64,000 nt of DNA, from assembly GCA_963709305.1 (NCBI GenBank), contig CAVPWO010000003.1, positions 49,760 through 113,759 on the forward strand. The letters run 5' to 3'. The notes under the pieces were generated by a model. That model worked only from the letters and a program-made list of their open reading frames with translations, was not told the DNA's origin and made no database searches. The position numbers were made by a program, and so were the translations under genes. This DNA comes from an uncultured Acidobacteriaceae bacterium (lineage in GTDB: Bacteria > Acidobacteriota > Terriglobia > Terriglobales > Acidobacteriaceae). Shown here in pieces: positions 6,884-37,998 of this stretch (positions are counted from its first letter, which is position 1; every line of letters begins with the position of its first letter).

Positions 6884-6961
6884 CGGCTTCCGGCGGCCAA
6901 CTTCCGGGGATTATCAATTCTGGGTGCCGGAAGCCGGAAAGCGGAAGGCGGCAGGAGCAAG
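6884..6961. repeat. inverted heptanucleotide word arrays
   Basis: cggcttccgg (6884-6893) is the exact reverse complement of ccggaagccg (6927-6936). Tandem heptads ccggaag ccggaaa gcggaag gcggcag follow. The block starts 19 nt after the flotillin stop. Confidence 0.8.
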
Positions 6962-6964
6962 GTT

Positions 6965-7177
6965 ATGACTAACAAATCGAAACTCAACGGATTTGGCATA
7001 GTACTGGGAGCGGCACTGGGCGCGGTTCTCGGGATTGTAGCTGGGCACGTCGGCATCTGGCTGGCCATCGGCGTCGCGATCGGCGTGTTACTCGGCGCCA
7101 CACTCCGCCGCAAACAGACGCAGTGCCCGCAGTGCGCCCAGCTCCACCGCATACACGAAGTGAACAGGCAGGTCTGA
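6965..7177 (+). CDS. small glycine-zipper membrane protein with C-terminal CxxC
   Basis: Internal ATG of the 6872-7177 ORF gives MTNKSKLNGFGIVLGAALGAVLGIVAGHVGIWLAIGVAIGVLLG...CPQC. The upstream part of that ORF is repeat DNA. Confidence 0.45.
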   Translation: MTNKSKLNGFGIVLGAALGAVLGIVAGHVGIWLAIGVAIGVLLGATLRRKQTQCPQCAQLHRIHEVNRQV

Positions 7178-7202
7178 GGCGCAATTTAAGGTCTCAAGAA
7201 AG

Positions 7203-7222
7203 TAGCTGACAGCTGATAGCTA
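7203..7222. repeat. heptanucleotide word array (agctgac agctgat agctag)
   Basis: Near-palindromic array centred on cagctg, lying between the small membrane ORF and pspA. Confidence 0.7.
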
Positions 7223-7243
7223 GATAAAGAAAAGGAGTTCATC

Positions 7244-7903
7244 ATGGCATTACTGGAGCGCGTTTCCACACTAGTCCGAGCCAACCTCAACGACCTGATC
7301 GACAAGGCCGAGGAGCCGGAAAAAATGATCAAGCAGGTTATTCTCGACATGCAGAACCAGTTATTGCAGGTCAAAACGCAGGTGGCGATTGCCATTGCCG
7401 ACCAGCACCTGCTGGAAAAAAAGCAGAAAGAAAACGAGAACAAAGTAGCGGAGTGGATGCGCAAAGCCGAACTCGCCGTCGACAAAAAAGAAGACGACCT
7501 TGCGCGCGCCTCGTTGCTGCGCGTGGAAAGCTATCGCGAACTCAGCGAGAATTTCACACAGCAGGTCTCGGACCAGAAGGCGCAAGTGGAGAATCTGAAA
7601 TCCGCCCTGCGTCAACTGGAACAAAAGCTTACCGAGGCTCAGGCCAAGGCCGACGTGCTGATTGCACAGCATCGCCGCGCCCGCGCCGTGGGCAAGGCCA
7701 GCGACGCGCGCATGGCGTCAGGCGATGGCTCAAAGACTGCAGCCTTCGATCGGATGAAGCGCAAAGTGGCGCACTCGGAGGCGGTGAGCCAGGCCAAGTC
7801 GGAAATAGCCGGCGACAACCTCGAAGACCGCCTGGCCGCGCTCGGCAAAGAAGACCGCATCGAGCAACTGCTGGCCGAGTTGAAGACCAAGCGCGGAGCG
7901 TGA
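7244..7903 (+). CDS. pspA: PspA/IM30 family protein (phage shock protein A)
   Basis: 219-aa ORF starting MALLERVSTLVRANLNDLIDKAEEPEKMIKQVILDMQNQL, a typical PspA N-terminus and coiled coil. An AAGGAG RBS is present. Confidence 0.9.
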   Translation: MALLERVSTLVRANLNDLIDKAEEPEKMIKQVILDMQNQLLQVKTQVAIAIADQHLLEKKQKENENKVAEWMRKAELAVDKKEDDLARASLLRVESYRELSENFTQQVSDQKAQVENLKSALRQLEQKLTEAQAKADVLIAQHRRARAVGKASDARMASGDGSKTAAFDRMKRKVAHSEAVSQAKSEIAGDNLEDRLAALGKEDRIEQLLAELKTKRGA

Positions 7904-8016
7904 GGGTTTTATTCCAGCGTCTTTTATTGAGGCGTAGTTCGGCGATCTCGGCTCGCCGCGGCACCCTATCGCGCACCGCACGCACGAACCGCCGTCGTAA
8001 ACAGAGGAGAATGTTT

Positions 8017-8448
8017 ATGAAAGTCAGGATCGAACGCTGGGCCTTCACCCTTTTTGTCGCCTTGCTGCTAGGTGCGGCAGCAGACGCCCAAGCTGCGCAA
8101 ACGCCAGAACAGCTCGCCCAACAATCCTCCACTTCGTGGTTGGCTCTCGTCGACTCAGGAAAGTGGGCGGAGAGTTGGGATGAGGCTGCCCAATTTTTTA
8201 AGGCGGCCGTCACCAAAGATCAGTGGCTAAGCTCGTTGGGCACAGTTCGCACGCCTCTCGGCAAGGTCTTATCGCGAAAGCTTAAGACCGCCACGTATAC
8301 CAAAACGCTGCCAGGAGCCCCCGATGGAGAATATGTGAAAATTCAGTACGACACCAGCTTTGAGCATAAACAAGCGGCAGTCGAGACCGTAGTCCCAATG
8401 CTCGATAAGGACGGCAAATGGAGAATTTCTGGATACTTCATCAAGTAG
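8017..8448 (+). CDS. secreted DUF4019-like protein
   Basis: ATG at 8017 lies 7 nt after AGGAGA. Signal peptide MKVRIERWAFTLFVALLLGAAADAQA. The pattern WLALVDSGKWAESW...WRISGYFI matches DUF4019. The longer 7453 ORF start overlaps pspA and is rejected. Confidence 0.7.
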   Translation: MKVRIERWAFTLFVALLLGAAADAQAAQTPEQLAQQSSTSWLALVDSGKWAESWDEAAQFFKAAVTKDQWLSSLGTVRTPLGKVLSRKLKTATYTKTLPGAPDGEYVKIQYDTSFEHKQAAVETVVPMLDKDGKWRISGYFIK

Positions 8449-8579
8449 AATCAATTTCGAGTCGAGTCTCTCAACAGTTGGCGGACCCGGAGTGGGGCGG
8501 TACATCCATTGACGGGCCTGCCTGCATCTCTCTATTCTCGTAGTGAATTCTCATAGTGATCTCATTTGAAGGACGGTAC

Positions 8580-9125
8580 ATGAAGAAGCTTGCATTCCTG
8601 TTCGTGCTGGCGCTGGAACTCGCGGTTTGCGGCTGCGGCAGTAACACCATCGCACCGACGACCACGAGTACTCAAGCTCAGGGCAATTGGGAGGCTGAGC
8701 TTACTGGAGGCACCGACCAGGCCAGTCTGCTCAATTTCATCACCGAATTTAATGTGACCAACGGTGGCCCCCTCGACATTAAGGCCTTCCAGTTTTTCAA
8801 TACAGGGAAGTGTTTTGCCATCGGCTCCATCGACGCGCCAGGTTCCAGTGAGAGCGGTACCGCCACTCTGATCACCGGTTCTGCAAATCAAGTGACTGGA
8901 ACATTGACTTATAAAGTGACCTCGATATCGCCAGCCGGCAACACGCTTATGATGTCCGGAAACCTGACCGGCACTTCGAATGGAACTCCTACCACCACAG
9001 GCACGCTGAGCAACGGAGTTGTAGTCGGCACCTGGACCTTGACCGGGGCGGCCGGCGATCCCAGTTGCGCGGGCTCGGGCAATTTCATCATGTGTCAGGG
9101 GACCGGCACTTGCAGCACACCTTAG
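8580..9125 (+). CDS. putative lipoprotein, function unknown
   Basis: MKKLAFLFVLALELAVCGCGS is a lipobox-like signal. The remainder is T/G/S-rich and beta-rich. Confidence 0.6.
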   Translation: MKKLAFLFVLALELAVCGCGSNTIAPTTTSTQAQGNWEAELTGGTDQASLLNFITEFNVTNGGPLDIKAFQFFNTGKCFAIGSIDAPGSSESGTATLITGSANQVTGTLTYKVTSISPAGNTLMMSGNLTGTSNGTPTTTGTLSNGVVVGTWTLTGAAGDPSCAGSGNFIMCQGTGTCSTP

Positions 9126-9251
9126 AAGAGGCCCGGCTGTGACCCTCGAGCCGCCGCATCTCCGGCTATATGTGCTCTCTCTTTCAAGTTCTCCCACTCT
9201 TCCTTCCTCGTGCCTCGCTGCTATACAGTGGGAGCACGGATACTAAGTACC

Positions 9252-10274
9252 ATGAAGCGCTCTCTGCAACAGATTGCCGAGGCGGTTGGAGCCCGCCTGA
9301 TGGGCGAGGGCCGCGTCGAAGTGAGCGCGGTGGCCAGCATTGCGTCGGCGTCGCCGGACGATCTGGTTTTCGTCGAGGATGAGAAACATCTGGCCGACGC
9401 GCTGCAATCGCAGGCGGGAGCAGTGATTGCGGGAGAGTTCGCAGAGGCGGTAACGTCATCACTGTCGGCCAGTCGCCCTCTTCTCCTCAGCGATCAGCCC
9501 AAATTGGCTTTTGCCCGCGCCGCACGCTTTCTGCGGGAGGGATCGCAGCCCGATCGTCGTCGCGCGCAGCAGGGAAGTGCGCACGCTACCGCGGTGATCC
9601 ATTCTTCGGTTGTGCTGGGCCCTGGAGTCGTAGTCGAAGAACGCGCCGTGGTCGGCGAACTAGCGCAGATCGGAAAGTACACCCGGGTTGGCGCCGGTTG
9701 CGCCGTTGGTGCCGGGGTGACCATCGGGCACGACTGTGAGATTTATCCGAACGTCACGATCTATCCGGGCACCACCCTGGGCGACCGCGTAATCGTGCAC
9801 GCCGGAGCAGTGCTGGGCAGCGACGGCTTCGGATACGTGCGCGACCGCAAAACCGGGCACTACGAAAAATTCCCCCAGGTAGGACGCCTGGTCATCGAAG
9901 ATGACGTTGAAATCGGCGCCAATGCCACCATCGATCGTGGCGCGCTCGATGAAACCCGCATCCGCCGCGGCACGAAGATCGACAACCTGGTCCACATCGG
10001 GCACAACTGCCAGATCGGCGAAGATGTAATCATCGCGGCCCAGACTGGATTGTCGGGAAGCATCGTGATCGAAAACGGAGTCGTGCTGGGCGGCCAGGTC
10101 GGCATCGGCGAGCACGCGCGTATAGAAGAAGGAGTCATGCTGGGCGGCCAGGGCGGCGTTCTGCCCAACAAAGTTCTGCGCGGCAAAGGCGTGGCATTCT
10201 GGGGAACTCCGGCGCAGCCGGTGCGGGAATATCTGAAGCAACTGGCGACGCTGGCTCGGTTGACAAAAAAGTAG
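9252..10274 (+). CDS. lpxD: UDP-3-O-acylglucosamine N-acyltransferase
   Basis: Has the N-terminal LpxD domain ([13 protein letters not shown]...DLVFVED) followed by left-handed beta-helix hexapeptide repeats and a C-terminal helix. Confidence 0.9.
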
Positions 10275-10280
10275 AAGGGC

Positions 10281-10378
10281 CGGCTTCCGGCGTTCGGCTT
10301 CCGGACCGGGGTTGTTTCATGGCGGCAGTGGAAGTCGAAAGCGGTTTCCGAAAGCCGGATGCCGGATAGCGGAAGCCG
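10281..10378. repeat. inverted heptanucleotide word arrays filling the lpxD downstream spacer
   Basis: cggcttc cggcgtt cggcttc cggaccg (10281-10308) faces gaaagcg gtttccg aaagccg gatgccg gatagcg gaagccg (10337-10378). Confidence 0.8.
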
Positions 10379-10384
10379 TCATCT

Positions 10385-11008
10385 ATGGCAATCATCGTCG
10401 TTGGCGGACATTCCCGCAGCGTGGGCAAGACCAGCGTGGTCGCTGGCCTCATCTCGGCGTTGCGTGAATTCGACTGGACTGCGGTTAAGATTACCCAGTA
10501 CGGCCATGGCATTTGTTCGGCGAATGGCGAGCCCTGTGACTGCGCTACCGGCGACCACTCCTGGGCAATCCTGGAAGAGCGCGACCGTTCGGGCGAATCG
10601 GATACGTCCCGCTTTCTGGTGGCGGGAGCTGCGCGGGCCCTGTGGGTGCGAACGGAGCAAGGGCGCCTCGCAGAAGCGATGCCAGCCCTGCGCCAACGCC
10701 TGGGAGATGCAGGCAACGTGATCATGGAGTCGAACAGCGTGCTGAAATTTATGCGCCCTGATCTATATCTCACGGTGCTCGATCCCTCGACGCCGGATTT
10801 CAAGAACTCGGCGCGGGGGTTCCTGGACCGCGCCAGTGCGGTAATCCTGCACGAAGTCCCGAGTGCGTCGGCGTGGCAATCCGTCTCGTTGAAACCGGTC
10901 ACGGGCCGGCCTATCTTTCACATCACGCCACCGAACTATGTAACACCAGAGATCGCCCACTTTGTCCGTTCAGCACTGACTCAAGAAGCATCGCAAGCTA
11001 GAAGCTAA
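10385..11008 (+). CDS. MobB-like P-loop NTPase, function unknown
   Basis: 207-aa ORF with a Walker A motif (GGHSRSVGKTS) at the N-terminus. The layout resembles MobB. It has an unusual HGICSANGEPCDCATGDH Cys/His cluster. Confidence 0.5.
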   Translation: MAIIVVGGHSRSVGKTSVVAGLISALREFDWTAVKITQYGHGICSANGEPCDCATGDHSWAILEERDRSGESDTSRFLVAGAARALWVRTEQGRLAEAMPALRQRLGDAGNVIMESNSVLKFMRPDLYLTVLDPSTPDFKNSARGFLDRASAVILHEVPSASAWQSVSLKPVTGRPIFHITPPNYVTPEIAHFVRSALTQEASQARS

Positions 11009-11029
11009 AAGCTAAAAGGTAAAAGCTGC
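10995..11029. repeat. heptanucleotide word array (aagctag aagctaa aagctaa aaggtaa aagctgc)
   Basis: Five tandem 7-mers. They encode the last residues and the stop (11006-11008) of the preceding ORF. Confidence 0.85.
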
Positions 11030-11033
11030 TCTT

Positions 11034-12652
11034 TTGCTATCCTTTCCCGTGCGGCAAATTCATTTCAGCGCCTGGCTGTTGGTCGTGGTCTCAGCCATTC
11101 TTCAGATCATCATCTTTCCGCTCCCCGGCATTTATGTTCTGTCGTGGTTCGCGCTCACGCCGTTGATCCTCGCTCTGCTGCGCGCGCGCCCCGCGGGCGA
11201 ACTCGAGATTGCCGGCTCCGTACGCCTTCGTCCCGCCACGCCCGGCCAGGGATTTCTGCTGGGCTACGTCTGCGGAATTCTGTGGTACGCAGGCACCTGC
11301 TACTGGATCTACGACACCATGCGCCAGTACGGCGGGCTTAGCGCCCCCGAAGCCCTGCTCGCGCTATTTCTGTTCTGCTGCTATCTCGGCCTCTACCACG
11401 GTCTTTTCGGATTGCTGGTGAGCCTGCTGGCGGGCTCGGGCCGCGATTTTCGATGGCCGCTGGTTAGTGGCTCCGTTTCTATGGGTCGCTGTGGAGTTGG
11501 CGCGCACGCAGATTACCGGATTTCCCTGGAATCTGCTCGGCATCGCGCAAGTTGACAACATCGCCCTCTGCCGCATCGCGGAATGGACCGGTGTGTACGG
11601 CATCTCGCTGGAGATTGCGCTGGTGAATGTCGCGCTTGGCGGCGGCGTTTCTGGTTCCGCGGGAGAAGCGCGGCGCGATGCTGGCGGCGGCATTGGCCGC
11701 AGCCGCGGTTCTGCAGGCCGGCAGGCTGATGGACGCTCCTCCAGCCAAGGCCGATCATGCGGCACTGCTGGTGCAGCAAAATATTCCGGTGTCGGCAGAA
11801 TGGACGCCGGCTTCTTTACAGCGAACGTTGAACGAGTTGACGGTACTCACGGTCAAGTCCGTGGCCGCCAGCCCGATGAAGATCGACTTGGTCGTCTGGC
11901 CGGAGTCGCCCGCGCCTTTCTTCAGCAACGATCCGCGATTTCGCCAGGCCGTCAGCGCGATGGCTCGCGACACAAAAACCTGGACCATCGCCGGCGCCAT
12001 CGGTACTTCATCGGCCCCGAGTCTGTCTGGCCAGACGGCTGCAGTGTTCAATTCCGCTGCATTAATCAGCCCCAGCGGCGAATGGAGCGCGCGTTACGAC
12101 AAGATCCATCTTGTACCCTTCGGCGAATATCTGCCGTTTCCCACTTTGTTTGCCTTCGCCGGCGGCCTCACAAAAGAAGTCGGCGAATTTCAGCACGGCA
12201 CAACGCGTAGCCCTCTAGATGGCGGAGAGCAACGCCTCGGCGTATTCATCTGTTACGAATCCATATTTCCGGACGAAGTCCGGCAGTTCGCCAACCAGGG
12301 CGCACAGGTGTTCGTGAATATTTCCAATGACGGATGGTACGGTGATAGCGGTGCCTACGCGCAGCACCTGAATCAGACACGCATGCGCACCGTCGAAAGC
12401 AATCGCTGGCTTCTGAGCGCGACCGATACCGGCGTCACGGCTTCTATCGACCCCTGGGGCCGCGTGGTGGCCCGCATTCCGCGCAAGCAGCGCGCAACCC
12501 TGGTCGCGCCCTACGCCCTTACTTCCGTCACTACTTTCTATACGCGCCACGGCGACTGGTTCGCCTATGCCTGTGCGATAATTTCGATAGGAGCGTTGCT
12601 CGCGCGCTTCACATTCTCGAAAAACCTCAAAAAGGCTGACGCGCCCTCATGA
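11034..12652 (+). pseudogene. lnt: apolipoprotein N-acyltransferase, reading frame broken twice (+1, +1)
   Basis: The N-terminal TM region is in frame 0 (11034-~11450). The conserved PFLWVAVELARTQITGFPWNLLG segment is in frame 1 (11422-~11640). The CN-hydrolase domain is in frame 2 (11627-12652). Confidence 0.8.
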
Positions 12653-14409: not shown

Positions 14410-14413
14410 GGCT

Positions 14414-15659: not shown

Positions 15660-15671
15660 CCCGGAGGGCCA

Positions 15672-16223: not shown

Positions 16224-16241
16224 GCGGCCCTTTAGGGCCGC
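16224..16241. terminator. strong hairpin between convergent genes
   Basis: gcggccc-ttta-gggccgc forms a perfect 7-bp GC stem. It sits in the spacer between the CoA-binding gene (+) and the PP2C gene (-). Confidence 0.5.
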
Positions 16242-16284: not shown

Positions 16285-17559
16285 TCAGCGTCCGACACCG
16301 ACAAACACCACGCTGGCATCGTCGCGCAAGGCAGCGCCGTTGGTGAAAGATCGCACGTCATCCTCGATGCTCACCGCTGACGCCCCCGGCTTTGCCGCAT
16401 GGGAAGCGAGACTGCACAGACCGTACTCTTCTCCGTTTGCGTTCTCTGCTTCCGTAATCCCGTCGCTATAGAAGATCAGCTTCGACCCTTCAGGCAACGC
16501 AATCCGGCTCTCGGAATAATCTCCGCAGCCCAGTCCCAGTGGCAATCCGCGCTCTGTATCCAGAAAGTGCTCGCCCTGGTTGTCGATGAACAGCGGACGC
16601 AAGTGTCCTGCATTGGCAAACACCACGGAGCGCTTTGACGGGTCGAGCACCGCATAGACCATGGTCACGAATTTTCCCGCGGGAAAATCGTCCACTAGCA
16701 ACTGGTTCAATCGGGTCAGCACTTCGCCGGGCGTGCAGCAGGCCTCCGCCAGCGAGCGCAACATACCACGCGTTGCCGACATGAGCAGAGCCGCGGCGGT
16801 TCCTTTGCCCGAGACGTCGGCCAGCACAATTCCCCAGCGTCCGTCAGGGAACGGAATGAAGTCGTACCAGTCGCCGCCCACGGCACGCGCCGGCACGCTG
16901 AGACCGGAAACCACGAACCCGGGAATGTAGGGAGAGCTCTTGGGCAGCAGCGCCTGCTGAATGGCGCGCGCCTCCTGGGCTTCAAGGTCCATGACCGCGC
17001 GTTCGTCGCGCTCGGACTGGAAGCGCCGCGCGTTGTGCACAGCAATGGCAACGTGGTCGCATAACGCCTGCAGAATTCTCAACTGCTGCCGGGGAAATCC
17101 GTCTACTTCGGGATGCGATGCCGTGAACACGCCCACCAGCCGGTCGCCGACGCGCAGCGGAATTGCTACTTCCGACAGCGTAGACGCCTCGCAGGCATAG
17201 TAATATTGATCCTGCCGGACGTCCGGCGCATAGCGCGTTTGGCCGGTGGCGGCCACATAACCGACCATTCCTTCCTGCCCAATCTTCAGGCGATGTCCTT
17301 TGCCGTGCAGACTGCATCCTCGAACTCCCGCGAGCACCATCTCGCTGTGTTTCTCGTCGTGTAAATAAATACTGGTCTCGAGGCAGCCGAAGGATTCCGT
17401 CACTTCGCTCACTACGCTTGCGATGAGCAGGTCAAGATCGAGAATCGAGGTGATTTTCTGCGCCGCTTTTTGCACCCGCTGCAAATCTTCTACAAGGTCG
17501 GCGGGCAGAGCGCGGGCGGGAACAATCTCACTGAAGGGGACATTGGGAGTCGTAGCCAT
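16285..17559 (-). CDS. GAF-domain PP2C/SpoIIE-type serine phosphatase (RsbU-like)
   Basis: N-terminal GAF domain and C-terminal PP2C motifs (GGDWYDF, VLADVSGKG, DGITEA). The start is chosen at MATTPNV (17557-17559), which has an AAGGAA RBS. Confidence 0.85.
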   Translation of the reverse strand: MATTPNVPFSEIVPARALPADLVEDLQRVQKAAQKITSILDLDLLIASVVSEVTESFGCLETSIYLHDEKHSEMVLAGVRGCSLHGKGHRLKIGQEGMVGYVAATGQTRYAPDVRQDQYYYACEASTLSEVAIPLRVGDRLVGVFTASHPEVDGFPRQQLRILQALCDHVAIAVHNARRFQSERDERAVMDLEAQEARAIQQALLPKSSPYIPGFVVSGLSVPARAVGGDWYDFIPFPDGRWGIVLADVSGKGTAAALLMSATRGMLRSLAEACCTPGEVLTRLNQLLVDDFPAGKFVTMVYAVLDPSKRSVVFANAGHLRPLFIDNQGEHFLDTERGLPLGLGCGDYSESRIALPEGSKLIFYSDGITEAENANGEEYGLCSLASHAAKPGASAVSIEDDVRSFTNGAALRDDASVVFVGVGR

Positions 17560-20187: not shown

Positions 20188-21366
20188 GTGCGCTCGGAGT
20201 CCCATTTGCCCAACATTGCAGTATCCCCGGTCACGACCCATCTTCTGGAGTGGCTGGCCATTTCGCTGACCCCCGGCCTCGGGCCCACAAAAGCGCGCAA
20301 GCTGATCGAACACTTCGGTTCGGCTGAAGGCGTCCTCCACGCTTCGTTGACCGAACTCGAAGGCACCGGCATTCAGGCGGTTTCCGCCCAATCGTTGGCC
20401 ACCGGGAAATCCGCGGAACTGGCTCGGGAAGAAATTGCGCGTGCCGCTGCCGCCGACGTAATCATGATCTCGATGGACGATCCGTCCTACCCGGCGCGGC
20501 TGAAAGAGATCTACGATCCGCCACTGATTCTTCGCGTCCGCGGGAATGCCGAAGTGCTCACCAAGCCCGGCATCGCCATGGTGGGCACGCGCCATCCCAC
20601 GCCCTATGGTTCCGGCATGGCCGAGCGGTTGGCCTGCGATCTGGCCGCGCAAGGGCTGGTCATCATTAGTGGTATGGCGCGCGGCGTCGACACCGCCAGC
20701 CATCGCGGAGCAATTTCCGCCAAAGGCAAGACCATCGCGGTATTCGGCACTGGCGTGGATGTGATCTATCCGAAAGAGAATTCAAGATTATCGGAACAAA
20801 TTCTGGCTCTCGATGGCGCACTGATCTCCGAGTTTCCTCTGGGAACTTTCGCCGCGCCGCAAAATTTTCCCATCCGGAACCGAATCATCAGCGGAATGTC
20901 GGTCGGCGTACTCGTGGTCGAAGCCGCGGAATACTCCGGAACGCGCATCACCGCGCGCTGCGCCCTGGAACAAAATCGCGACGTCTTCGCTGTCCCCGGC
21001 AACGTCACCAACAAGAATTCCTGGGGACCGAACACGCTCATCAAACAGGGCGCCAAGCTGGTGGCAACCTGGGAAGATGTGTGGGAAGATCTTCCGCCAG
21101 AAGTACGACTTGCACTGACTCCGCCCGCCTCGCCTGAATCCCCAGGCTCCTCGTCGGCATCTCTATTTCCAGACGAAGGGCTCCCTCCTCACGAAAAGCG
21201 AATCCTGAGCTTGCTGAAAGCGGACGAGTCCACTCACATCGACGAGATTGTCGAGCGCCTGGAAAACCAATTGTCGTCCTCCGAAATCTTTGCCGCCCTG
21301 TTCGAACTGGAACTAGCCGGCAAGATCAGGCAGATGCCGGGGAAGAATTTTGTGAAAAGCTTTTAG
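20188..21366 (+). CDS. dprA: DNA-processing protein A (Smf)
   Basis: 392-aa ORF with a SAM-like N-terminus, a Rossmann-fold core (GTRHPTPYG...ISGMARGVD) and a C-terminal winged-helix DML1 domain. Confidence 0.9.
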   Translation: MRSESHLPNIAVSPVTTHLLEWLAISLTPGLGPTKARKLIEHFGSAEGVLHASLTELEGTGIQAVSAQSLATGKSAELAREEIARAAAADVIMISMDDPSYPARLKEIYDPPLILRVRGNAEVLTKPGIAMVGTRHPTPYGSGMAERLACDLAAQGLVIISGMARGVDTASHRGAISAKGKTIAVFGTGVDVIYPKENSRLSEQILALDGALISEFPLGTFAAPQNFPIRNRIISGMSVGVLVVEAAEYSGTRITARCALEQNRDVFAVPGNVTNKNSWGPNTLIKQGAKLVATWEDVWEDLPPEVRLALTPPASPESPGSSSASLFPDEGLPPHEKRILSLLKADESTHIDEIVERLENQLSSSEIFAALFELELAGKIRQMPGKNFVKSF

Positions 21367-21370
21367 AAAA

Positions 21371-21409
21371 GCTATCAGCTGTCAGCTATCAGCCGTCAGC
21401 TTTCAGCTT
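21371..21409. repeat. heptanucleotide word array (gctatca gctgtca gctatca gccgtca gctttca gctt)
   Basis: Starts 5 nt after the dprA stop. 21377-21400 is a 23/24 inverted match to 21777-21800. Confidence 0.9.
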
Positions 21410-21430
21410 GGTCACAGTGAAGGAGGCTCC

Positions 21431-21788
21431 TTGCAGGAATTTCGAAATCTTAAGGTCTGGGAAAAGGCGCACGCTCTCACTCTTGACGTCTATAAAGCAA
21501 GCAGATCCTTCCCCCGGGAAGAGATGTACGGCTTGACCAGTCAGATGCGGAGAGCGTCGGTTTCGATCGGCGCCAACATCGCAGAGGGAGCTTGCAGAAG
21601 GGGTGACGTAGACTTTGCTCGCTTCTTGCAAATGGCTGCAGGTTCGGCGAGTGAAGTGGAGTATCACTTGCTCCTCGCACGCGACTTAAATCTGCTGGAA
21701 GCCTCAGAGTGAGCGACTTTCGGCCGAGGCGGTGGAGGTCAAACGAATGCTGGCATCGCTGATGCAAAAGCTGAGAGCTGACAGCTGA
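21431..21788 (+). pseudogene. four-helix-bundle protein (23S rRNA intervening-sequence protein family), +1 frame break near codon 91
   Basis: MQEFRNLKVWEKAHALTLDVYK...GSASEVEYHLLLARDLNLLEA then stops at 21710-21712. The expected C-terminus (SERLSAEAVEVKRMLASLMQKLRADS*) continues in the +1 frame to 21788. Confidence 0.8.
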
Positions 21789-21800
21789 TAGCTGACAGCT
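21769..21800. repeat. heptanucleotide word array (agctgag agctgac agctgat agctgac agct)
   Basis: Inverted relative to 21371-21409. It overlaps the last codons of the four-helix-bundle ORF. Confidence 0.9.
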
Positions 21801-21875
21801 TTCCCCCAGTAACTTGTTGCTTTCCACCCATTCGTGCTAGCTTCGAAAACGGACGCAACTGAAATTGAGGACACA

Positions 21876-25813: not shown

Positions 25814-26695
25814 ATGACCGTAGTATCCGAAAACCCAAAAGCGCCAGGCAGCAGTGTCGCCGGTCAGGCGCGCGAGATTACCGTGGCCCACAGCCCGGAC
25901 TCCGACGATGCCTTCATGTTTTACGGCCTGGCCACAAACAAAGTTCGCGCCGCGGCCCTGCGCTTCACACATACCCTCTGCGACATTGAGACCCTGAATC
26001 AGAAAGCGCGCGAAGGCGTCTACGACGTCAGTGCGATTTCGTTTCATGCCTATCCCTACGTTCAGGATAAATATGCCCTGATGTCTTGCGGAGGCAGCGT
26101 AGGCGAGGGCTACGGGCCCATGATCGTCTCCCCGCGCGCCTTTACCCCGAGCGAAATCAAGACCAAGCGCATTGCCGTGCCCGGCACTCTCACCACCGCG
26201 TACCTCGCGTTGCAGTTGTTTGCTCCCGGGGTCGAAACCGAAGTCGTTCGCTTCGACCAGATCATCCCCCAAGTGCTGGAAGGAAAATACGAAGCCGGTC
26301 TGATCATCCACGAAGGCCAGCTCACTTACGACAAGGCGGGCCTGCACCGCATTGTCGATCTCGGCCGCTGGTGGCAGAAGGTGACCGGCTTACCTTTGCC
26401 ATTGGGAGGCAACGCGATCCGCCGCGCCCTTGGTCCCGAATTGACCTCGGCAGTTTCGGCAGCCTTGCGCGAGAGCATCCAATACGCCCTCGACCACCGC
26501 GAAGAAGCGCTCTCGTATGCGATGCAGTTCGCCCGTGATCTCGACTCGCAGTCCGCCGACAAATTCGTCGGGATGTACGTGAACGAGCGCACCCTCGACT
26601 ACGGCCCCGACGGCCGCGAAGCCGTCCGCCGCCTCCTCGACATGGGCCACAAGGCCGGCATCATCGGTCCAGAAGCCAGAGTGGACTGGGTGTAG
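25814..26695 (+). CDS. MqnA/MqnD-family (VitK2_biosynth, periplasmic-binding-protein-like fold) protein
   Basis: 293-aa ORF with the HSPDSDDAFMFYGL N-terminal motif. It is a second member of the family that includes mqnA at 19284-20120. Confidence 0.75.
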   Translation: MTVVSENPKAPGSSVAGQAREITVAHSPDSDDAFMFYGLATNKVRAAALRFTHTLCDIETLNQKAREGVYDVSAISFHAYPYVQDKYALMSCGGSVGEGYGPMIVSPRAFTPSEIKTKRIAVPGTLTTAYLALQLFAPGVETEVVRFDQIIPQVLEGKYEAGLIIHEGQLTYDKAGLHRIVDLGRWWQKVTGLPLPLGGNAIRRALGPELTSAVSAALRESIQYALDHREEALSYAMQFARDLDSQSADKFVGMYVNERTLDYGPDGREAVRRLLDMGHKAGIIGPEARVDWV

Positions 26696-26862
26696 CTACG
26701 AGCTTCGAGCTACGAGCTTCGAGCCACGAGCTATGAGCCCCGAGCTTTGAGCTACGAGTGGGATCGGCCGTACACTACCGGGCATTTGCTGGTAGATTCC
26801 AAAGCTAAATCTCCGCGCTGCCGGCTTGCTCATAGCTCGTGGCTCGAAGCTTGCGGCTCAAA
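26696..26862. repeat. nine-unit heptad array plus inverted five-unit array (22-bp perfect inverted repeat)
   Basis: ctacgag cttcgag ctacgag cttcgag ccacgag ctatgag ccccgag ctttgag ctacgag (26696-26758). 26717-26738 is the exact reverse complement of 26828-26849. Confidence 0.9.
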
Positions 26863-26873
26863 CGTTTCATCGA

Positions 26874-27575
26874 ATGCCAAGTTCCGTTCCTCAAACCCTC
26901 CTCATCGACGCCGACGACACGCTCTGGGAGAACAATATTTATTTCGAGCGGGCCATCGCCCGCTTCATCTCATTTCTGAATCACCACGAATTTTCTCCCG
27001 AGCAGGTGCGCGAAGTGCTCAACGACGTGGAGCGCGACTGCATCCTGAAACATGGCTACGGCCTGCACAGCTTCGCCCACGCGCTGCTCGAGACTTTCGA
27101 GCGTTTGAGCGTCGTGCCGGTCACGCCCGAGTTGCACGCCCAGATTCACAGCTTGGCCCACACCATTGCCGACCAGCCACTCGAGCACTTGCCCGAGGTG
27201 CCGGAGACCCTGCAATATTTAAAGGAGCGCCATCGCTTGATCCTGATGACCAAGGGAGCGCTCGTGGAACAAAAAGGAAAAGTCGAGCGCTCCGGCCTGA
27301 AAGAATATTTCGCCGCGGTCGAAATTGTAGCCGAGAAGGATCCCGCGGCCTACGCCGAGGTTGTCGAAAAGTACGAGCTTGCGCACGACTCAACCTGGAT
27401 GGTCGGCAACAGCCCGAAATCCGACATCAATCCCGCCCTCGCCGCCGGGTTGAACGCCGTCTTCGTGCCGCACGGCAGCACCTGGATCCTCGAGCACGAG
27501 GAAGTCAATCCAGCACCCCCGCGACAGAAATTGCTCATCGTCGGCCGCTTCGCCGAACTGCGCGATCACTTCTAG
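26874..27575 (+). CDS. HAD-superfamily hydrolase
   Basis: LLIDADDTLWEN provides the DxD motif I. KG at motif III and a GNSPKSD-type motif IV are also present. The start is placed at MPSSVPQTLL. Confidence 0.8.
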   Translation: MPSSVPQTLLIDADDTLWENNIYFERAIARFISFLNHHEFSPEQVREVLNDVERDCILKHGYGLHSFAHALLETFERLSVVPVTPELHAQIHSLAHTIADQPLEHLPEVPETLQYLKERHRLILMTKGALVEQKGKVERSGLKEYFAAVEIVAEKDPAAYAEVVEKYELAHDSTWMVGNSPKSDINPALAAGLNAVFVPHGSTWILEHEEVNPAPPRQKLLIVGRFAELRDHF

Positions 27576-29049: not shown

Positions 29050-29165
29050 CGGCTGATAGACTCCTCACCCCAATCGGGTCCAGAGCGGGAAGCCGCTGAC
29101 TCGCACTCTCGAAAGTCGCTCGCAGAAGCAAGTCGCGGAATGGTAAACTGCGCGGAAGGCGGCCT

Positions 29166-29549: not shown

Positions 29550-29813
29550 GCTCGGAGGGAACAGGGCGAGCACGGGCCCTCCCGCCTGCCGGACAAACTC
29601 CGGTCATGCAACCGCGTAAATTCTCCTTTCTAGGCGATTCGCGTCCATGCGATAACAACAATCGGCAGAGTCGTAACAGGGGAAATTTCATCGGGGCACG
29701 TCGCCTACCTTGTCTTCCAATCACTAGGGGCCTATTCAGGAACCATCTCCGGCAGCAACTTTTTCCCCGCCAGGGGTTCATAATCAGGAGAACCGCTCCG
29801 CCGGGGAAACTTC

Positions 29814-31967: not shown

Positions 31968-32048
31968 GATCGCCGTAGAGATGTAGCTTGCTACGTCTCT
32001 GGCGGCGGCAATGAAAGGTGTAGCAATCTACGTCTCACGAGGTTTGAA

Positions 32049-33293: not shown

Positions 33294-33485
33294 CAGAATC
33301 GTGGAAGCGCCCGCTTTCAGAAGATTAGAAAGCTCCGCATCTGCGCTGTTTCGAAGAGCACGGCTTCAGAGCCTGCCGACACAATCCGATTGGTATCAGG
33401 GCAACGGTTTCAGCCGTGCCGTAAGCTGTGCAAAAGGAATGTTGGCTTTAGCCGCTGAGGGTGGCATCAAGCCGCAACTAACCCG

Positions 33486-34145
33486 TCAATTGAGGACGCC
33501 GCGTTGCCGCGTGTAGTCCACCCAGGCTTCAGCGGCAAGAAACGTCGTCGTGAACCCGAGCCAGAACGCGATTCCAAAGAACTCATGCGGCGTGAGCCGC
33601 CGGAATGCAAAGAACGTCCCAACGATGGGCCGTGTTGTAGCCACCCCCAGCCCGACGCCGAAGGCGCGAATCATCCACTCACGATGCCGCGCCACCTCCT
33701 TGCGCCGAATGTGCCGATAAGCCTTGATCAGACAATAAAGAAATACAATGGCGAACAGCGTAGTCGCCGCGGTTTCATTGGGTCCGCCGATGCTCATCGT
33801 GTAGCTCATGATCAGCGCTGACACTCCAATAATCAGTCCGCAGACCACCAGCACTCTTCCTATCCAGCGATGAAGTTGCAAGTGCCTTTGTCGCACGCTG
33901 GGCACGAACTGCAAGGGCGCGAGAATAAGAAATAGGCCGCCGGGAAGAATGTGTATCAAGGTCAACGCCATGTGCCGCGCGAATCCCGCGTCGAGGGCGG
34001 CAGCCGGCGAAGCGCTCCCACCGCCAAGCGAACCGGGCCTGAACAGAACCAGCGTGCGGCGAGTAACGGCGGCAACCCCGATCACAACCAGAAATATGAC
34101 TCCCGTCCAGAGGAAACGCGTCGTGCGTTTTGATACCGGCATCAA
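33486..34145 (-). CDS. DUF2306 membrane protein
   Basis: 219-aa multi-TM ORF with the HILPGGLFLILAPLQF...HRWIGRV signature. Confidence 0.7.
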   Translation of the reverse strand: MMPVSKRTTRFLWTGVIFLVVIGVAAVTRRTLVLFRPGSLGGGSASPAAALDAGFARHMALTLIHILPGGLFLILAPLQFVPSVRQRHLQLHRWIGRVLVVCGLIIGVSALIMSYTMSIGGPNETAATTLFAIVFLYCLIKAYRHIRRKEVARHREWMIRAFGVGLGVATTRPIVGTFFAFRRLTPHEFFGIAFWLGFTTTFLAAEAWVDYTRQRGVLN

Positions 34146-34151
34146 AAAATC

Positions 34152-34745
34152 CTAAACTTCGCTAGTTAACTCCACCTTGGATCTGTTTTGGGCGGGAAAG
34201 CGTTGACGAAGGGCAGCCACTACTGCCGCGTCCGCTCTAGCGGATATCATTTCCAAGGGCGAGAAACCTCGCCGCCGTGCCAACCACAGCGTGACCAACA
34301 ACAGCACAACAGTGATCGCCATATTGGGCCACGCGTTCAGTCCCCACTCCCCACGCCACGCGAGTTGCAGTGAAGAGGAGAACGGCTGCAGATAGGGAAT
34401 TGGCCACTGATAGCCCTCCGGCCCTCGGGAACCCAGTATGTCTTCGAGCAAATGCAAGTGGAAGCTCAACAGCGCGAACAGGCCGGTCGCCCACTTTCGT
34501 GTGGCGAGGGCAAACGCCAGTATGGCGACCACCAACGCGAACGTCAGACTGTGTAGTGCGTGGTGGTACAGCGTGAACCACAACAGCGGATGCGCCGAGT
34601 TTCGAGTGAGGACTTCAGGAATTATTCCCAGACCATCGACGTCGGGGACCACGCAGGCCAACGTCACCAGGGCCCGATCTCTTCGATTTAACCCGGCACA
34701 GTTTGCCAGGACCCATCCGGTGAAGAAGTGGGTGACGGGACTCAT
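34152..34745 (-). CDS. membrane-bound metal-dependent hydrolase (DUF457/YdjM-like)
   Basis: MSPVTHFFTGW...VPDVDGLG...YHHALHS...HLHLLEDIL shows the His/Asp motifs of DUF457. It overlaps the upstream Rieske gene by 4 nt. Confidence 0.75.
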   Translation of the reverse strand: MSPVTHFFTGWVLANCAGLNRRDRALVTLACVVPDVDGLGIIPEVLTRNSAHPLLWFTLYHHALHSLTFALVVAILAFALATRKWATGLFALLSFHLHLLEDILGSRGPEGYQWPIPYLQPFSSSLQLAWRGEWGLNAWPNMAITVVLLLVTLWLARRRGFSPLEMISARADAAVVAALRQRFPAQNRSKVELTSEV

Positions 34746-35065
34746 GGCGCTGATTCTGCTTCGATGTCAATCAGGACTTCGCCATTCTCGACCTTGATGG
34801 AGTAGGTTTTCAGCTTCTCATCAGGATGCCCATCGGCCACGCCAGTCTTCGGGTCCCATCGCCAGCCGTGCCAGGGGCAGACTACCCTGCCGTCTTCGAC
34901 CATTCCCTGTCCGAGCGAGCCGCCCTGATGCCGGCACTCGTTATCCATGGCGCTGAGCTTTCCCCAGATGTTGGCAATGCAGATCATTTTCCCATTGCAG
35001 GGAAAGTCTTGCGCTTCGTTGGTTTTGGGCAAATGAGCTTGAGGAATTATTTTGACGAAGGCCAT
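34742..35065 (-). CDS. Rieske [2Fe-2S] domain protein (ferredoxin-like)
   Basis: Carries CRHQGGSL...CPWHGWRW, i.e. the CxH...CxxH cluster ligands. Confidence 0.85.
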   Translation of the reverse strand: MAFVKIIPQAHLPKTNEAQDFPCNGKMICIANIWGKLSAMDNECRHQGGSLGQGMVEDGRVVCPWHGWRWDPKTGVADGHPDEKLKTYSIKVENGEVLIDIEAESAP

Positions 35066-35145
35066 GATCGATTCTGATTTATTTTAGCCTCTCGCGCGAC
35101 GACCGGCAGTGTACAGAAATGGTTCCTCCACTGGCGATGACTGGC

Positions 35146-35170
35146 GGACAGCCGAGGCGGCTGTCTCTAC
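35146..35170. repeat. dispersed hairpin element gacagccgaggcggctgtctctac, copy 1
   Basis: 23/24 identical (one indel) to 39382-39404. It forms a 7-bp stem. Confidence 0.75.
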
Positions 35171-35181
35171 CGAGCCGTTTC

Positions 35182-35220
35182 GCTGACAACGGATAGCTGA
35201 GAGCTGACAGCTCCACAGCT
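35182..35220. repeat. heptanucleotide word array (gctgaca acggata gctgaga gctgaca gctccac)
   Basis: Directly abuts the nuoB stop. Closely resembles the array at 37971-37998. Confidence 0.75.
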
Positions 35221-35779
35221 ACCTCGGTTGCATGGTTTGCGCGATCATCACCTGGCGCTTGAAATTTTCCACCATGTTGGGATCGAGCCGGACTTCTGTC
35301 GGCTTCCGGGCCAGCGTCATGGTGTCGATCTTGTCCTGCAACTTGAGCAGCGCGTAGAAAAGATTCTCGGGACGCGGCGGGCATCCAGTGACGTAAACAT
35401 CCGTGGGGACGATTTTGTCGACGCCCTGCAGCACCGCATAAGTATTGAACGGCCCGCCCACCGAAGAACACGCGCCCATGGAGATCACCCATTTCGGATC
35501 GGGCATCTGGTCGTAGATGCGCTTGACCACCGGCGCCATCTTCAGCGTGACCGTGCCCGCCACAATCATCAGGTCGCTCTGCCGCGGGCTGGGGCGGAAG
35601 ACCTCCGACCCGAAGCGCGCAATGTCGAAGCGCGACGTGGACGAGGCGATCATCTCAATCGCGCAGCAGGCCAACCCAAACGTCATCGGCCACACCGCCG
35701 ACTTGCGCGCCCAGTTGAAAACATAATCAACCGTGCTGATCATGAAATTCTTTTCAAACTTGTTCTGCAGCCAGCCCAT
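35219..35779 (-). CDS. nuoB: NADH-quinone oxidoreductase subunit B, stand-alone
   Basis: [17 protein letters not shown] and GCPPRPE supply all four N2-cluster cysteines. No nuoA, nuoC or nuoD gene is adjacent. Confidence 0.9.
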
Positions 35780-36084
35780 TGGGATCGTCCCTCTCCGATT
35801 GCTACCGGAAGCGCTATACAGGCAGTCTAGGTAAGCACCGAAGCACTGTCAAACCTGTTTGGGGGTGAGAACAGGACGGGACGGAATATGCACCCCTTGA
35901 GCTCGGTAGCGGAGCTGTGTGGTCGACGGGGGCATTGGACTGCGGCGGGGTTGCGAATCGGTGGCGCGTCGATTCAGCTTGCTTATCGTGTTCGCTGCAG
36001 CTATGACCGTGTTGGCGAGTTCTTTCGACCGTATCCTGGACGACCGGTGACAACGGGGAGCTTTGTTTTCGCAAATCGAAGGGA

Positions 36085-37134
36085 TCAGCCCAGCAGTTGC
36101 TTCGCGATCCGGCAGTACAAATCAATCGCCTCCGCCAGTTGCTGCTTCTCGATGTATTCGCCGTCGGTGTGCGCCACGTGAATCGATCCCGGACCGAGCA
36201 GCAGCGGTTCGCCCCAGTTGGTGAGCTTTGGGATGTCCGTAGTAAACGCCGCAATCATCGTCGGCAATCCGTCGACCGTGCGCAAGCGAAGAAAAGGAAG
36301 CTCCAGCGGGAAGGTGACGTCTACCGCATCGCCGGCAGTCGAAACAATCTGTCGCCGCAAATCATCCGACGGACCAACCAGCCGGTAAAGCAAGTCCGCG
36401 TGCGCATAATCAGGGATCACGTTGGGCGCGCGTCCGCCTTCAATGAGCCCGATGTTCAGCGTGCACGGTCCAACCTCCGGATCGGAAGGCAGCGGCATCG
36501 CGCGCAACCGCGTCAGCGCCGGAATCAGCTTGTCAATCGCGGACTCTCCCAACTCCGGATACGCCGAATGCGCCATGCGTCCCGTCGCAGTGACCTCAAC
36601 ACGTAGCGTCCCTTTCGATGCGAGGGCCAGGCGATTCTCCGTCGGCTCGCCGTTGATCAGAAAGCGGGATTTTGCGCCTTTTGCGTTGGCGGCATATTCA
36701 TTCGCCGCATACTCATTTGCTACCTGCGCGCCCAGGCTGTCGCGTTCTTCTCCGACCACAAACAGAAGCCCCACATGGATGTTCTGCTGTCGCAATCGTT
36801 CCGCAGCCGCAATTTGCGCTGCGATAATGCCCTTGGCGTCGCAGGATCCGCGCCCATAAATGCGTCCCGCATCTTCCGATGATGGAATGAATGGAGGAAC
36901 CGTATCCATGTGCGTGGAGAACACCACTTCAGGATGCGGATGTTCTTCTGATGTCGCGTAAACATTGAATCGGTCGGCCTCGACCGGCATTTTCCTGGTT
37001 TGATAGCCCAGGCGACAAAGTTCTCCGTAAAGATAATTCCCCACCGCAGCTTCGTTGCCAGTGATGGATTCGATGTCCACCAGTTGCCGCGTAAGAGTTA
37101 CAGCGTCCATGGAGGAGAGAATAGCAGAGAGCAA
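36085..37134 (-). CDS. M20-family metallopeptidase (ArgE/DapE-like deacylase)
   Basis: 349-aa ORF with HMDTVP, GRGSCDAKG and GEE motifs and a dimerisation-domain insertion. Confidence 0.85.
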   Translation of the reverse strand: MLSAILSSMDAVTLTRQLVDIESITGNEAAVGNYLYGELCRLGYQTRKMPVEADRFNVYATSEEHPHPEVVFSTHMDTVPPFIPSSEDAGRIYGRGSCDAKGIIAAQIAAAERLRQQNIHVGLLFVVGEERDSLGAQVANEYAANEYAANAKGAKSRFLINGEPTENRLALASKGTLRVEVTATGRMAHSAYPELGESAIDKLIPALTRLRAMPLPSDPEVGPCTLNIGLIEGGRAPNVIPDYAHADLLYRLVGPSDDLRRQIVSTAGDAVDVTFPLELPFLRLRTVDGLPTMIAAFTTDIPKLTNWGEPLLLGPGSIHVAHTDGEYIEKQQLAEAIDLYCRIAKQLLG

Positions 37135-37235
37135 AAGGACGTCAGACCTAGGACTTCATACTTTGGACTTCCGAACTCAGACCTTTGATGTCAGCCAGTT
37201 TCTTCTCTTCCACCCTTAGCGTGTAATCTGACGTT

Positions 37236-37929
37236 GTGATTTCTTCGAACCCTTCCATCCGATCGCTCTTTCTCGACGGTTCCGCGGGACGCCTGGAAGC
37301 TCTCCTGAACGCCGGTACAGCGAATGCAACGCACGCCGCTGTGGTCTGCCATCCACATCCGCTGTTTGGCGGAACGCTGCACAACAAAGTCGTCTTCCAT
37401 ACTATGAAGGCGCTAAACAGCTTTGGTTTTCCCGTATTGCGCTTCAATTTCCGCGGGACCGGCTTGAGCCAGGGAGAACATGATCAGGGCAATGGAGAAG
37501 TCGAAGATGTTCGTACCGCGCTCGACTGGCTCGACGCCGAATATCAGCCTGCCGCTAATATTTGCCGGATTCTCCTTCGGAGCAGCGGTCGGATTGCGTG
37601 CTGCGTGCCCGGATACGCGAGTTCGTGCGGTCATCGGTGTTGGCACGCCTGTCGGTCCAGTGGCTGCCGACAGCGACGTGCCGCGCACGTACACCTTTGA
37701 CTTCCTGCAGGATTGCGCCAAGCCCAAACTTTTCGTCAGTGGAGCTCGCGACCAGTTTGGTCCGCGCGCGAAGCTGGAAGCGCTGCTTGCGTCGATGCCG
37801 GAGCCGAAGAAGCTGGTGTTGATCGAAGGCGCGGATCATTTCTTCGAAGGGCGCTTGCGCGAACTGCGGGAAGCGATTGAAGCATGGGTGAAGGAAGCTC
37901 TCAGCTCTCAGCCGTCAGCTTTCAGCTAA
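37236..37929 (+). pseudogene. alpha/beta-hydrolase, +1 frame break near 37548
   Basis: Frame 0 carries the N-terminal part (HPHPLFGGTLHNKV...DWLDAEYQ). Frame +1 carries LPLIFAGFSFGAAVG (the GxSxG elbow) through to the C-terminus. Confidence 0.75.
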
Positions 37930-37998
37930 AACCCCGAAGTGAAGACGCCGAGGTGCATTTCTTACTTGCCGCTGACAACCGAAAGCCGATAGCTGACA
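37897..37998. repeat. two heptanucleotide word arrays in inverted orientation
   Basis: gctctca gctctca gccgtca gctttca (37897-37924) encodes the hydrolase C-terminal tail and shares 20 nt with 21390-21409. gctgaca accgaaa gccgata gctgaca is at 37971-37998. Confidence 0.8.

Follow-up and report, generated by a model that had tools for sequence, protein, structure and literature searches.

Mirror-image heptanucleotide arrays in an Acidobacteriaceae genome as arms of a palindromic element that can enclose a 23S rRNA intervening-sequence protein gene

Arrays and an enclosed gene in the window

Spacers built from tandem units of 7 nucleotides (nt) were examined on contig CAVPWO010000003.1 of an uncultured Acidobacteriaceae bacterium (GenBank assembly GCA_963709305.1), in a stretch of 64,000 nt (positions 49,760 to 113,759, forward strand) that is termed the window here and is numbered from its first letter. 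The element formed by these units is composed of two mirror-image arms, each of about 4 to 6 heptanucleotides, and its full form holds a TIGR02436/PF05635 gene, encoding a four-helix-bundle protein of the 23S rRNA intervening-sequence (IVS) family, in a loop of about 400 nt. Nine spacers of the window are occupied by such arrays, with twelve arms counted, where an earlier note made from the sequence alone had counted at least ten. The inventory comprises one full cassette of the IVS type, four hairpins that hold no open reading frame (ORF), and three solo arrays. All of the arrays lie in spacers or overlap ORF ends, and the flanking genes were assigned by Pfam to flotillin, PspA, LpxD, Lnt, DprA, TopA, an MqnA/D-like protein, a haloacid dehalogenase (HAD) hydrolase, NuoB, an alpha/beta-hydrolase, and a glycerate-kinase-like protein. 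The DprA homologues with a named source are labeled Candidatus Sulfotelmatobacter (Acidobacteriota).

The full cassette is positioned on the plus strand between dprA and topA. Its left arm (21368 to 21409; five to six AGCTNTC units) begins 1 to 3 nt past the dprA stop codon, and its right arm (21767 to 21802; four to five GANAGCT units) ends 31 nt before topA. Between the two is an ORF (21431 to 21795) preceded by a GGAGG ribosome-binding site, and the right arm supplies its final residues and stop codon. The arms are 94% complementary over 33 nt (21368 to 21403 with 21767 to 21802); in the minimum-free-energy fold of the 451-nt RNA (21360 to 21810), a 33-bp stem is formed with 21768 to 21800 and closes a 358-nt loop (z = -5.3). 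The ORF was matched to Pfam PF05635 (E-value 8e-37) and NCBIfam TIGR02436 (E-value 4e-37), and an orthologue of it to the PDB structure 2GSC (E-value 5e-21). A single frameshift was detected near 21709 to 21711 (bounds 21705 to 21715): frame 1 terminates at ...LLEASE, while the C-terminus ...SERLSAEAVEVKRMLASLMQKLRADS runs on to its stop codon in frame 2. The gene is intact, at 101 to 125 aa, in all relatives examined, and the broken copy of the window is either a pseudogene or an error of the assembly consensus.

Further searches of the protein and its surroundings were made. A relaxed Pfam scan of the protein returned PF05635 and a weak bAvd match (PF22296), with no HEPN-type match and no recognizable catalytic domain; PADLOC gave no defense-system match for it, and Pfam detected no transposase domain in the ORF or its neighbors. 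A tblastn search of the window, loops of the ORF-less pairs included, found no second PF05635 gene or remnant, and an origin of these pairs by internal deletion of a cassette thus gains no support. A gathering-threshold scan of the whole window with Rfam returned no match and no rRNA; thus, no known riboswitch or small RNA family accounts for the spacers. Because the window holds no rRNA and the flanks are dprA and topA, the element has the architecture of an IVS and is not an rRNA IVS.

The periodicity of the spacers was examined by several approaches. Tandem 7-nt units were present at every coordinate listed in the earlier note, exactly or a few bases off, and Tandem Repeats Finder reported period-7 arrays at 6926 to 6951, 10995 to 11027, 21370 to 21408, 21769 to 21800, 26694 to 26758, 35182 to 35212, and 37896 to 37927. 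A lag-k autocorrelation scan (at least 16 matches in 21 nt) identified 7 arrays of period 7 in the window compared with 0.05 expected from Markov-1 simulations, and a looser scan identified 8 compared with 0.1. Among the other periods, 14 (a multiple of 7) also gave 7 arrays, 9 and 15 gave 3 each, 16 gave 2, and 12 gave 1, while periods 3 to 6, 8, 10, 11, and 13 gave none, which shows that the periodicity is genuine and has its maximum at 7. Coding constraint had rightly been dismissed as its cause. An assembly artifact was rejected: dozens of independent assemblies produced by separate projects, as well as finished genomes of cultured strains, have arrays at orthologous positions.

Each unit is built from six near-constant positions and one variable position. 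Contrary to the initial impression that each locus has a word of its own, about four word families were distinguished: AGCTNTC/GANAGCT at four loci (21368 with 21767, 37896 with 37971, 35182, and 7203), CGGCNTC/GANGCCG at two (6884 with 6927, and 10281 with 10355), AGCTNCG/CGNAGCT at one (26694 with 26828), and AGCTAAA at one (10995). The arrays range from overlapping the preceding stop codon to lying 25 nt past it, and the next start codon follows within 4 to 31 nt in eight of the nine spacers (116 nt for the array downstream of nuoB). The arrays thus abut the next start as closely as the preceding stop, which indicates that they fill spacers, almost completely in all cases but that of nuoB, and do not specifically mark 3′ ends, so the placement exactly at gene 3′ ends that had been proposed was not upheld. 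The ORF tails read as array-encoded (ending in QEASQARS, SSQPSAFS, and KLRADS) were confirmed. The idea that the arrays serve to supply stop codons in all three frames was dropped, being true of words with TGA or TAG on one arm and not general.

Inverted pairing, likewise noted before, was confirmed at five loci of the window, with possible stems of about 16 to 35 bp; the four ORF-less pairs have loops of 19 to 89 nt. As RNA, the pairs at 26694/26828, 21368/21767, and 10281/10355 are significantly more stable than shuffled sequence. In the spacer between the MqnA/D-like and HAD hydrolase genes, nine AGCTNCG units (26694 to 26758) overlap the stop codon of the former, and five CGNAGCT units (26828 to 26862) end 11 nt before the likely ATG (26874) of the latter. 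These arms are 89% complementary over 35 nt (26704 to 26738 with 26828 to 26862), and the region 26685 to 26870 folds into a stem of about 35 bp (-89.4 kcal/mol, z = -5.9). The right arm overlaps what is annotated as, or could be, a TTG start of the HAD hydrolase gene, both in the window (26826 to 26876) and in the relative L002 (17239 to 17262; see below), and arrays are therefore able to supply start regions as well as stops; the true start in the window is likely the ATG at 26874. Downstream of lpxD, CGGCNTC units (10281 to 10304) begin 6 nt past the stop codon and their GANGCCG partners (10355 to 10378) end 6 nt before the next start (region 10270 to 10390; -55.1 kcal/mol, z = -3.0). Downstream of the flotillin gene, CGGCTTC-type units (6884 to 6907) begin 18 nt past the stop codon and are followed by GCCGGAA/GAAGCCG units (6927 to 6950) that end 14 nt before a small ORF (6965 to 7177), with complementarity of 71% over 24 nt or 88% over 16 nt and a fold of -35.5 kcal/mol (z = -2.1). 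The fourth pair is formed by four to five AGCTNTC units (37896 to 37927), which encode the final residues of the alpha/beta-hydrolase ORF together with its stop codon, and a degenerate GANAGCT-like arm (37971 to 38000) that ends 19 nt before the next start. Complementarity is 73% over 30 nt (37897 to 37926 with 37971 to 38000), and since its fold is no better than those of shuffled sequences (z = +0.4), this pair looks like a decaying copy. The solo arrays are found (i) between the small ORF and pspA, where AGCTGAC AGCTGAT AGCTAG (7203 to 7222; the GANAGCT word) has no partner arm; (ii) at 10995 to 11029, where five AGCTAAA-type units supply the last residues and stop codon of the ORF at 10385 to 11008; and (iii) 6 nt past the nuoB stop codon, where four AGCTNTC units lie on the minus strand (35182 to 35212) and are followed by a separate small hairpin.

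The enclosed gene and its arms in other genomes

Homologues were collected by alignment of window-type proteins, with one genome per species, and the 80 further loci brought the set to 84 PF05635 genes from about ten phyla (Acidobacteriota, Chloroflexota, Verrucomicrobiota, Planctomycetota, Bacteroidota, Cyanobacteriota, Pseudomonadota, Gemmatimonadota, Omnitrophota, and Poribacteria). For 78 of the 84 genes, the preceding 200 nt and the following 160 nt share an inverted repeat that scores 13 or more, compared with 2 of 249 control positions from the same loci. A period-7 array was present in the flanks of 71 genes and of 7 controls. Periods 5, 6, and 8 to 11 were not enriched in the PF05635 flanks, and for period 4 the test was too permissive to be informative. 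Half of the loci represent the orthologous dprA-topA site of Terriglobia (43 loci); among the 41 genes outside this site, the inverted repeat was found for 37. The link to four-helix-bundle genes that the earlier note had listed for checking is thus real and strong.

The cassettes were found to be uniform in geometry. The left arm stops some 26 nt short of the start codon, while the right arm starts roughly 7 nt ahead of the stop codon and in 60% of cases overlaps the ORF end. Loops measure about 395 nt and stems about 32 bp, and the arms have a median of 5.3 units. In 58 of 62 stems (P = 4e-11), the arms paired better than arms whose units had been permuted in order; they are therefore genuine mirror images and not simply two arrays that share a word. 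Watson-Crick pairing was found at 64% of the variable positions. Among the mismatches of cassette stems, G.U is more frequent than A.C on the sense strand (111 versus 69, P = 0.002).

Cassettes were also identified in finished replicons. Among PLSDB plasmids, the gene is carried mainly by Nostoc and Calothrix, the organisms in which heptamer repeats of the short tandemly repeated repetitive (STRR) type were first described; the Nostoc punctiforme cassette has GTCAGGA arms. On a plasmid of Picosynechococcus sp. PCC 7003 (L089, NZ_CP016476.1), a cassette with GGAGATA-type arms separates cas10/cmr2 from cmr3 in a type III-B CRISPR operon. This position between cmr2 and cmr3 accounts for earlier reports of the 23S_rRNA_IVP family inside cas operons and suggests that the published cas-associated genes are insertions of the cassette element. 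On plasmid AZO_p2 of Azospirillum lipoferum 4B (L087, NC_016586.1, 12901 to 16236), a PF05635 ORF with GACAGAG/GACGGAT arms lies about 1.2 kb into a 23S rRNA gene, which was found by Rfam in an unannotated stretch; this element looks like a classical ORF-bearing IVS. An exception to the heptamer mirror rule was noted on plasmid 1 of Gemmatirosa kalamazoonensis (L088), where the homologue is flanked by period-8 units (CTCCTGCC) in direct and not inverted order. In viral contigs of IMG/VR, the three closest homologues (L210 to L212) have heptamer arrays just upstream (GTAGTCT, GGGAGTA, and GAGTTAG), and three remoter, probably Avd-like, homologues are without them. In the cyanobacterium Tildeniella nuda (L080, 3636 to 4116), at least eight consecutive (CCGCTGA)n blocks, joined by short TAA/AAGC linkers at a spacing of about 41 to 55 nt, form a higher-order repeat of heptamer arrays, with the words CCCCACT and GAAGGCA nearby.

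Orthologous sites were compared with those of three relatives retrieved by homologue search (L001, L002, and L003; DprA identity to the window 96%, 93%, and 90%, respectively). In all three, an intact PF05635 gene is present at the dprA-topA site, again between mirror heptamer arrays, with the cassette word AGCTNCT in L001 and L002 and GGCTNTT in L003. The cassette protein of the window is about 80% identical to those of the same-word relatives L028, L056, and L070 (DprA 85 to 89%) and only 48 to 62% identical to those of its closest, other-word hosts (DprA 90 to 96%). Same-word cassette pairs are also more alike outside orthologous sites (58.9% versus 52.3%). Because protein identity depends on the shared word and not on how closely the hosts are related, the gene is transmitted along with its arms, and different alleles take one another's place at a single site.

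Spacers outside the cassettes were found to change in similar ways. The comparison of orthologous spacers proposed in the earlier note revealed that unit number and the variable base differ among relatives (43 dprA-topA loci and the L001 to L003 spacers) and that a spacer may be filled or missing: downstream of lpxD, the window has a CGGCNTC pair and L003 a GGACNTC pair, and in L002 the spacer is absent. No obvious target-site duplication was seen between the filled sites and the single empty site compared. The spacer orthologous to the 10995 array holds solo arrays with other words in L001 to L003. The MqnA-HAD spacer has an array pair in all four genomes compared, and the words in L001 to L003 differ from that of the window; in each of these three relatives the pair carries the cassette word of that genome, whereas the pair of the window does not. 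In L001, the left arm of this pair is an identical 31-nt copy of the cassette arm, 5.5 kb away. Thus, of the proposal that arrays arise by local expansion and not by copying, the part that concerns unit number and the variable base stood, while the identical arms at two loci and the inheritance of arms with the gene speak against the rest. Across loci, 27 of the 77 arrays outside cassettes have the word of the local cassette, compared with 5% for cassettes from other loci, and three of the four words of the window are cassette words in close relatives. In L002, the MqnA-HAD mirror arms (16658 to 17262) enclose neither a PF05635 gene nor a short loop but about 560 nt that hold an ORF of about 145 aa (VSASFEESCRRFREFLVGNGY...) of unrelated sequence; arms can therefore bracket other cargo.

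Relation to described repeat systems

Although the earlier note knew of no described function for the arrays, intergenic heptanucleotide arrays are a described class (STRR or long simple sequence repeat [LSSR]), with examples including the STRRs of Calothrix and Nostoc, GGGAATC in Xanthomonas, TAACTGA in Beggiatoaceae, and GGGACCG in Geobacter. Bacterial heptamer repeats have been noted since 1990, and since 2007 heptamers have been recognized as the long simple repeat with the strongest over-representation in prokaryotes, an excess for which slippage has been proposed. In Xanthomonas, the GGGAATC arrays form convergent inverted pairs at 70 to 75 sites, and whether a site is single or paired is conserved across species. 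The arrays of the window resemble this class in their tandem 7-nt units (at least three copies), intergenic location, many loci per genome, and lineage-specific words, in lengths that differ between relatives while position is kept, and in the inverted pairs shared with Xanthomonas. They differ in that several words coexist per genome, one position per unit is systematically variable, the arms are short (4 to 6 units) and mirror ordered, and Acidobacteriota are not among the described hosts. The array class itself is therefore already known, and what is new is a variant with mirror pairs in Acidobacteriota. The published accounts of heptamer arrays that were searched give no function and do not mention a four-helix-bundle gene, and in the open-access literature no paper was found that links PF05635/TIGR02436 genes to flanking heptamer arrays, except the description of the Coxiella IVS. 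That mirror heptamer arrays bracket TIGR02436 genes almost universally hence appears to be undescribed.

The IVSs of 23S rRNA in Coxiella burnetii and Leptospira share with the cassette a PF05635 (S23p) ORF within a stem of terminal inverted repeats, an element size of about 430 nt, and tandem heptamers of strain-variable copy number. In C. burnetii, the IVS carries the same ORF, a 28-bp terminal stem that is cut by RNase III, and two to three tandem GACAGAT units whose number varies among strains; RNase III cutting of IVSs was demonstrated experimentally in Coxiella, Leptospira, and Salmonella. Unlike these, the element of the window lies between dprA and topA and not in helix 25 or 45 of rRNA, and most elements are ORF-less. 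Repetitive extragenic palindromes (REPs), bacterial interspersed mosaic elements, and REP doublets forming hairpins (REPINs) with their REP-associated tyrosine transposases (RAYTs) are similar in that extragenic palindromes of lineage-specific sequence fill intercistronic spacers as inverted doublets, and in that inverted copies of the cognate repeat flank a dedicated gene. The gene here, however, encodes a four-helix bundle of 115 to 125 aa and not a Y1 HUH transposase of the IS200/IS605 type, and the repeat is a tandem heptamer array and not a single palindrome of 20 to 40 nt. The Avd protein of diversity-generating retroelements, a pentameric basic barrel that binds a defined RNA element, has a homologous four-helix-bundle fold, as the weak PF22296 match indicates; yet the immediate neighbors of the cassette are DprA and TopA, with no reverse transcriptase or template/variable repeat adjoining, in a comparison that covers these immediate neighbors. 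CRISPR arrays differ in their repeats of 24 to 48 nt with unique spacers, where the units here are 7 nt and contiguous.

Interpretation and rival explanations

We estimate at roughly 60% the probability that the arrays are heptanucleotide repeats of the STRR/LSSR type built as palindromic elements, that as inverted pairs they constitute the stem module of four-helix-bundle cassettes of the IVS type, and that they act as double-stranded RNA (dsRNA) stems that are processed by RNase III or stabilize mRNA. By analogy with the rRNA IVSs, such a role in operon transcripts is the most likely one. In this mechanism, (i) the arms are true mirror images that can form stems of about 16 to 35 bp; (ii) arms and enclosed gene are inherited as a unit, and alleles with different words are present at the same site in close relatives; (iii) the element would be cotranscribed with the flanking genes, and RNase III would cut the dsRNA stem as in Coxiella, Leptospira, and Salmonella, such that the cassette mRNA may be excised and the neighboring cistrons separated or stabilized; and (iv) units may be gained or lost by replication slippage, with arm complementarity probably kept by arm-to-arm copying and, for cassettes, also by selection on the RNA stem.

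Several results count against this interpretation. The solo arrays at 7203, 10995, and 35182 and the pair at 37896/37971 have no convincing stem compared with shuffled sequence, and the CGGCNTC word of the window is absent from all 85 cassettes examined. The G.U excess of the cassettes does not extend to ORF-less pairs (26 G.U versus 30 A.C); selection at the RNA level is therefore indicated for full cassettes only and is unsupported for the ORF-less elements that dominate the window. When metagenomes were searched for 3.5 units of AGCTNTC, 120 arrays were obtained, of which only 2 adjoin a PF05635 ORF; 42 are ORF-less pairs, 1 is a pair that encloses something else, 55 scored as single arms (47 of them without a detectable partner), and 20 were left undetermined by a contig end within 500 nt. 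Four of the 120 are inside called genes. The association is thus one-sided, with the gene almost always accompanied by arrays and the AGCTNTC arrays seldom by the gene, and because most arrays are away from the gene, they may be an independent phenomenon in which it is embedded. The 62 classifiable metagenomic cases were distributed over codirectional, convergent, and divergent spacers (44, 10, and 8) without bias relative to the background (171, 34, and 40), in a test that is weak because the genes were called by a crude codon-usage caller trained on this window. Spacer usage at background level implies that there is no 3′-end bias and that divergent (promoter-side) spacers are not avoided.

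These same observations favor a reading in which the arrays are palindromic satellites at the DNA level with no RNA role: units would arise by slippage, arm complementarity by intrastrand template switching or gene conversion, and the PF05635 gene would be a mere resident of pre-existing palindromes or insert into them preferentially. We judge this rather unlikely, but a functionless satellite is a serious rival. Arrays outnumber PF05635 genes by about 100 to 1 in array-bearing contigs, mismatch types are symmetric in the ORF-less stems, spacer orientation is unbiased, close relatives differ in unit number and variable base, and there is literature precedent for slippage as the cause of the heptamer excess. 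However, slippage alone cannot account for 78 of 84 PF05635 genes positioned at a fixed distance between mirror arms in about ten phyla, and the covariation of protein and word as well as the sense-strand G.U excess of cassette stems are left unexplained. A different division of labor, possible but less likely than the main interpretation, resembles that of REPINs and RAYTs: the PF05635 protein, likely a pentameric basic barrel like Avd, would recognize its cognate word and promote the spread or upkeep of ORF-less pairs as non-autonomous partners of a "master" cassette. Inverted repeat copies flank the gene, short-loop ORF-less doublets are about 20 times commoner, several words coexist per genome, and word sharing is concentrated near the cassette, including the MqnA-HAD pairs of L001 to L003 and the 31-nt identity in L001. 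The median of 5.3 units per arm may also be set beside the five chains each of 2GSC and 2RLD and the RNA-binding pentamer of Avd. Against this are the protein's want of a recognizable catalytic domain or a defense-system match, with only PF05635 and the weak bAvd hit returned, and the comparison of filled sites with one empty site, which showed no obvious target-site duplication; moreover, the MqnA-HAD pair and both CGGCNTC pairs of the window lack the word of the resident cassette, and ectopic gene conversion could yield word sharing as well. Possibly, then, TIGR02436/PF05635 proteins are cognate partners of heptamer arrays, with a probably pentameric protein recognizing about five units of its own word, as RNA or DNA, and cassettes seeding or maintaining ORF-less pairs and solo arrays as RAYTs do REPINs; by relation to Avd, such a partnership of protein and repeat is conceivable.

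Two further functions were considered for the hairpins and arrays as such. Stable GC-containing hairpins right after stop codons could be factor-independent transcription terminators or attenuators between genes, yet the canonical terminator at 3575 to 3603 of the same window is real while no array stem is followed by a T/U tract, a difference that the earlier note had drawn correctly. Together with the location of elements within apparent operons, a few bases before the next start, and with solo arrays that lack any stem, this makes a terminator role very improbable. Contingency loci, in which a change of unit number would switch the expression of a neighbor (phase variation), are suggested by the differences in unit number among relatives and among Coxiella strains, but they are scarcely credible here: the units are imperfect, with a variable base that lowers slippage; the neighbors are housekeeping genes (lpxD, dprA, topA, and nuoB); a period of 7 at an ORF end alters only a few tail residues; and the mirror-pair structure is left unexplained.

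A gene bracketed by mirror heptamer arrays across about ten phyla links two puzzles: heptamer repeats without an accepted function, and the S23/IVS protein family, which is widespread, often multicopy, structurally solved, and of unassigned role. The presence of the same module in rRNA genes, operon spacers, and cas operons leads to a testable model of dsRNA stems processed by RNase III, possibly with a protein-repeat partnership. If the latter were true, it would explain the prokaryotic heptamer excess, including cyanobacterial STRRs, the origin of ORF-bearing 23S IVSs, and the function of this Avd-related family. For annotation, such spacers are to be treated as a family of repeat elements and not as terminators, and the odd C-terminal tails of neighboring ORFs as by-products of the arrays.

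The distribution of repeats along the window is uneven. No period-7 array exceeded the cutoff of the looser scan between 38001 and 64000, all eight being detected in the first 38 kb (chance of about 0.015 if uniform); the last 26 kb has larger genes in more mixed orientation. Two tandem repeats that are not related to the heptamers were detected as well: (i) a perfect 17-nt unit (CTTTTTAATTGCGGAAT) present 2.1 times at 40030 to 40064, within a 685-nt gap between called genes; and (ii) a 20-nt unit present twice at 62574 to 62612.

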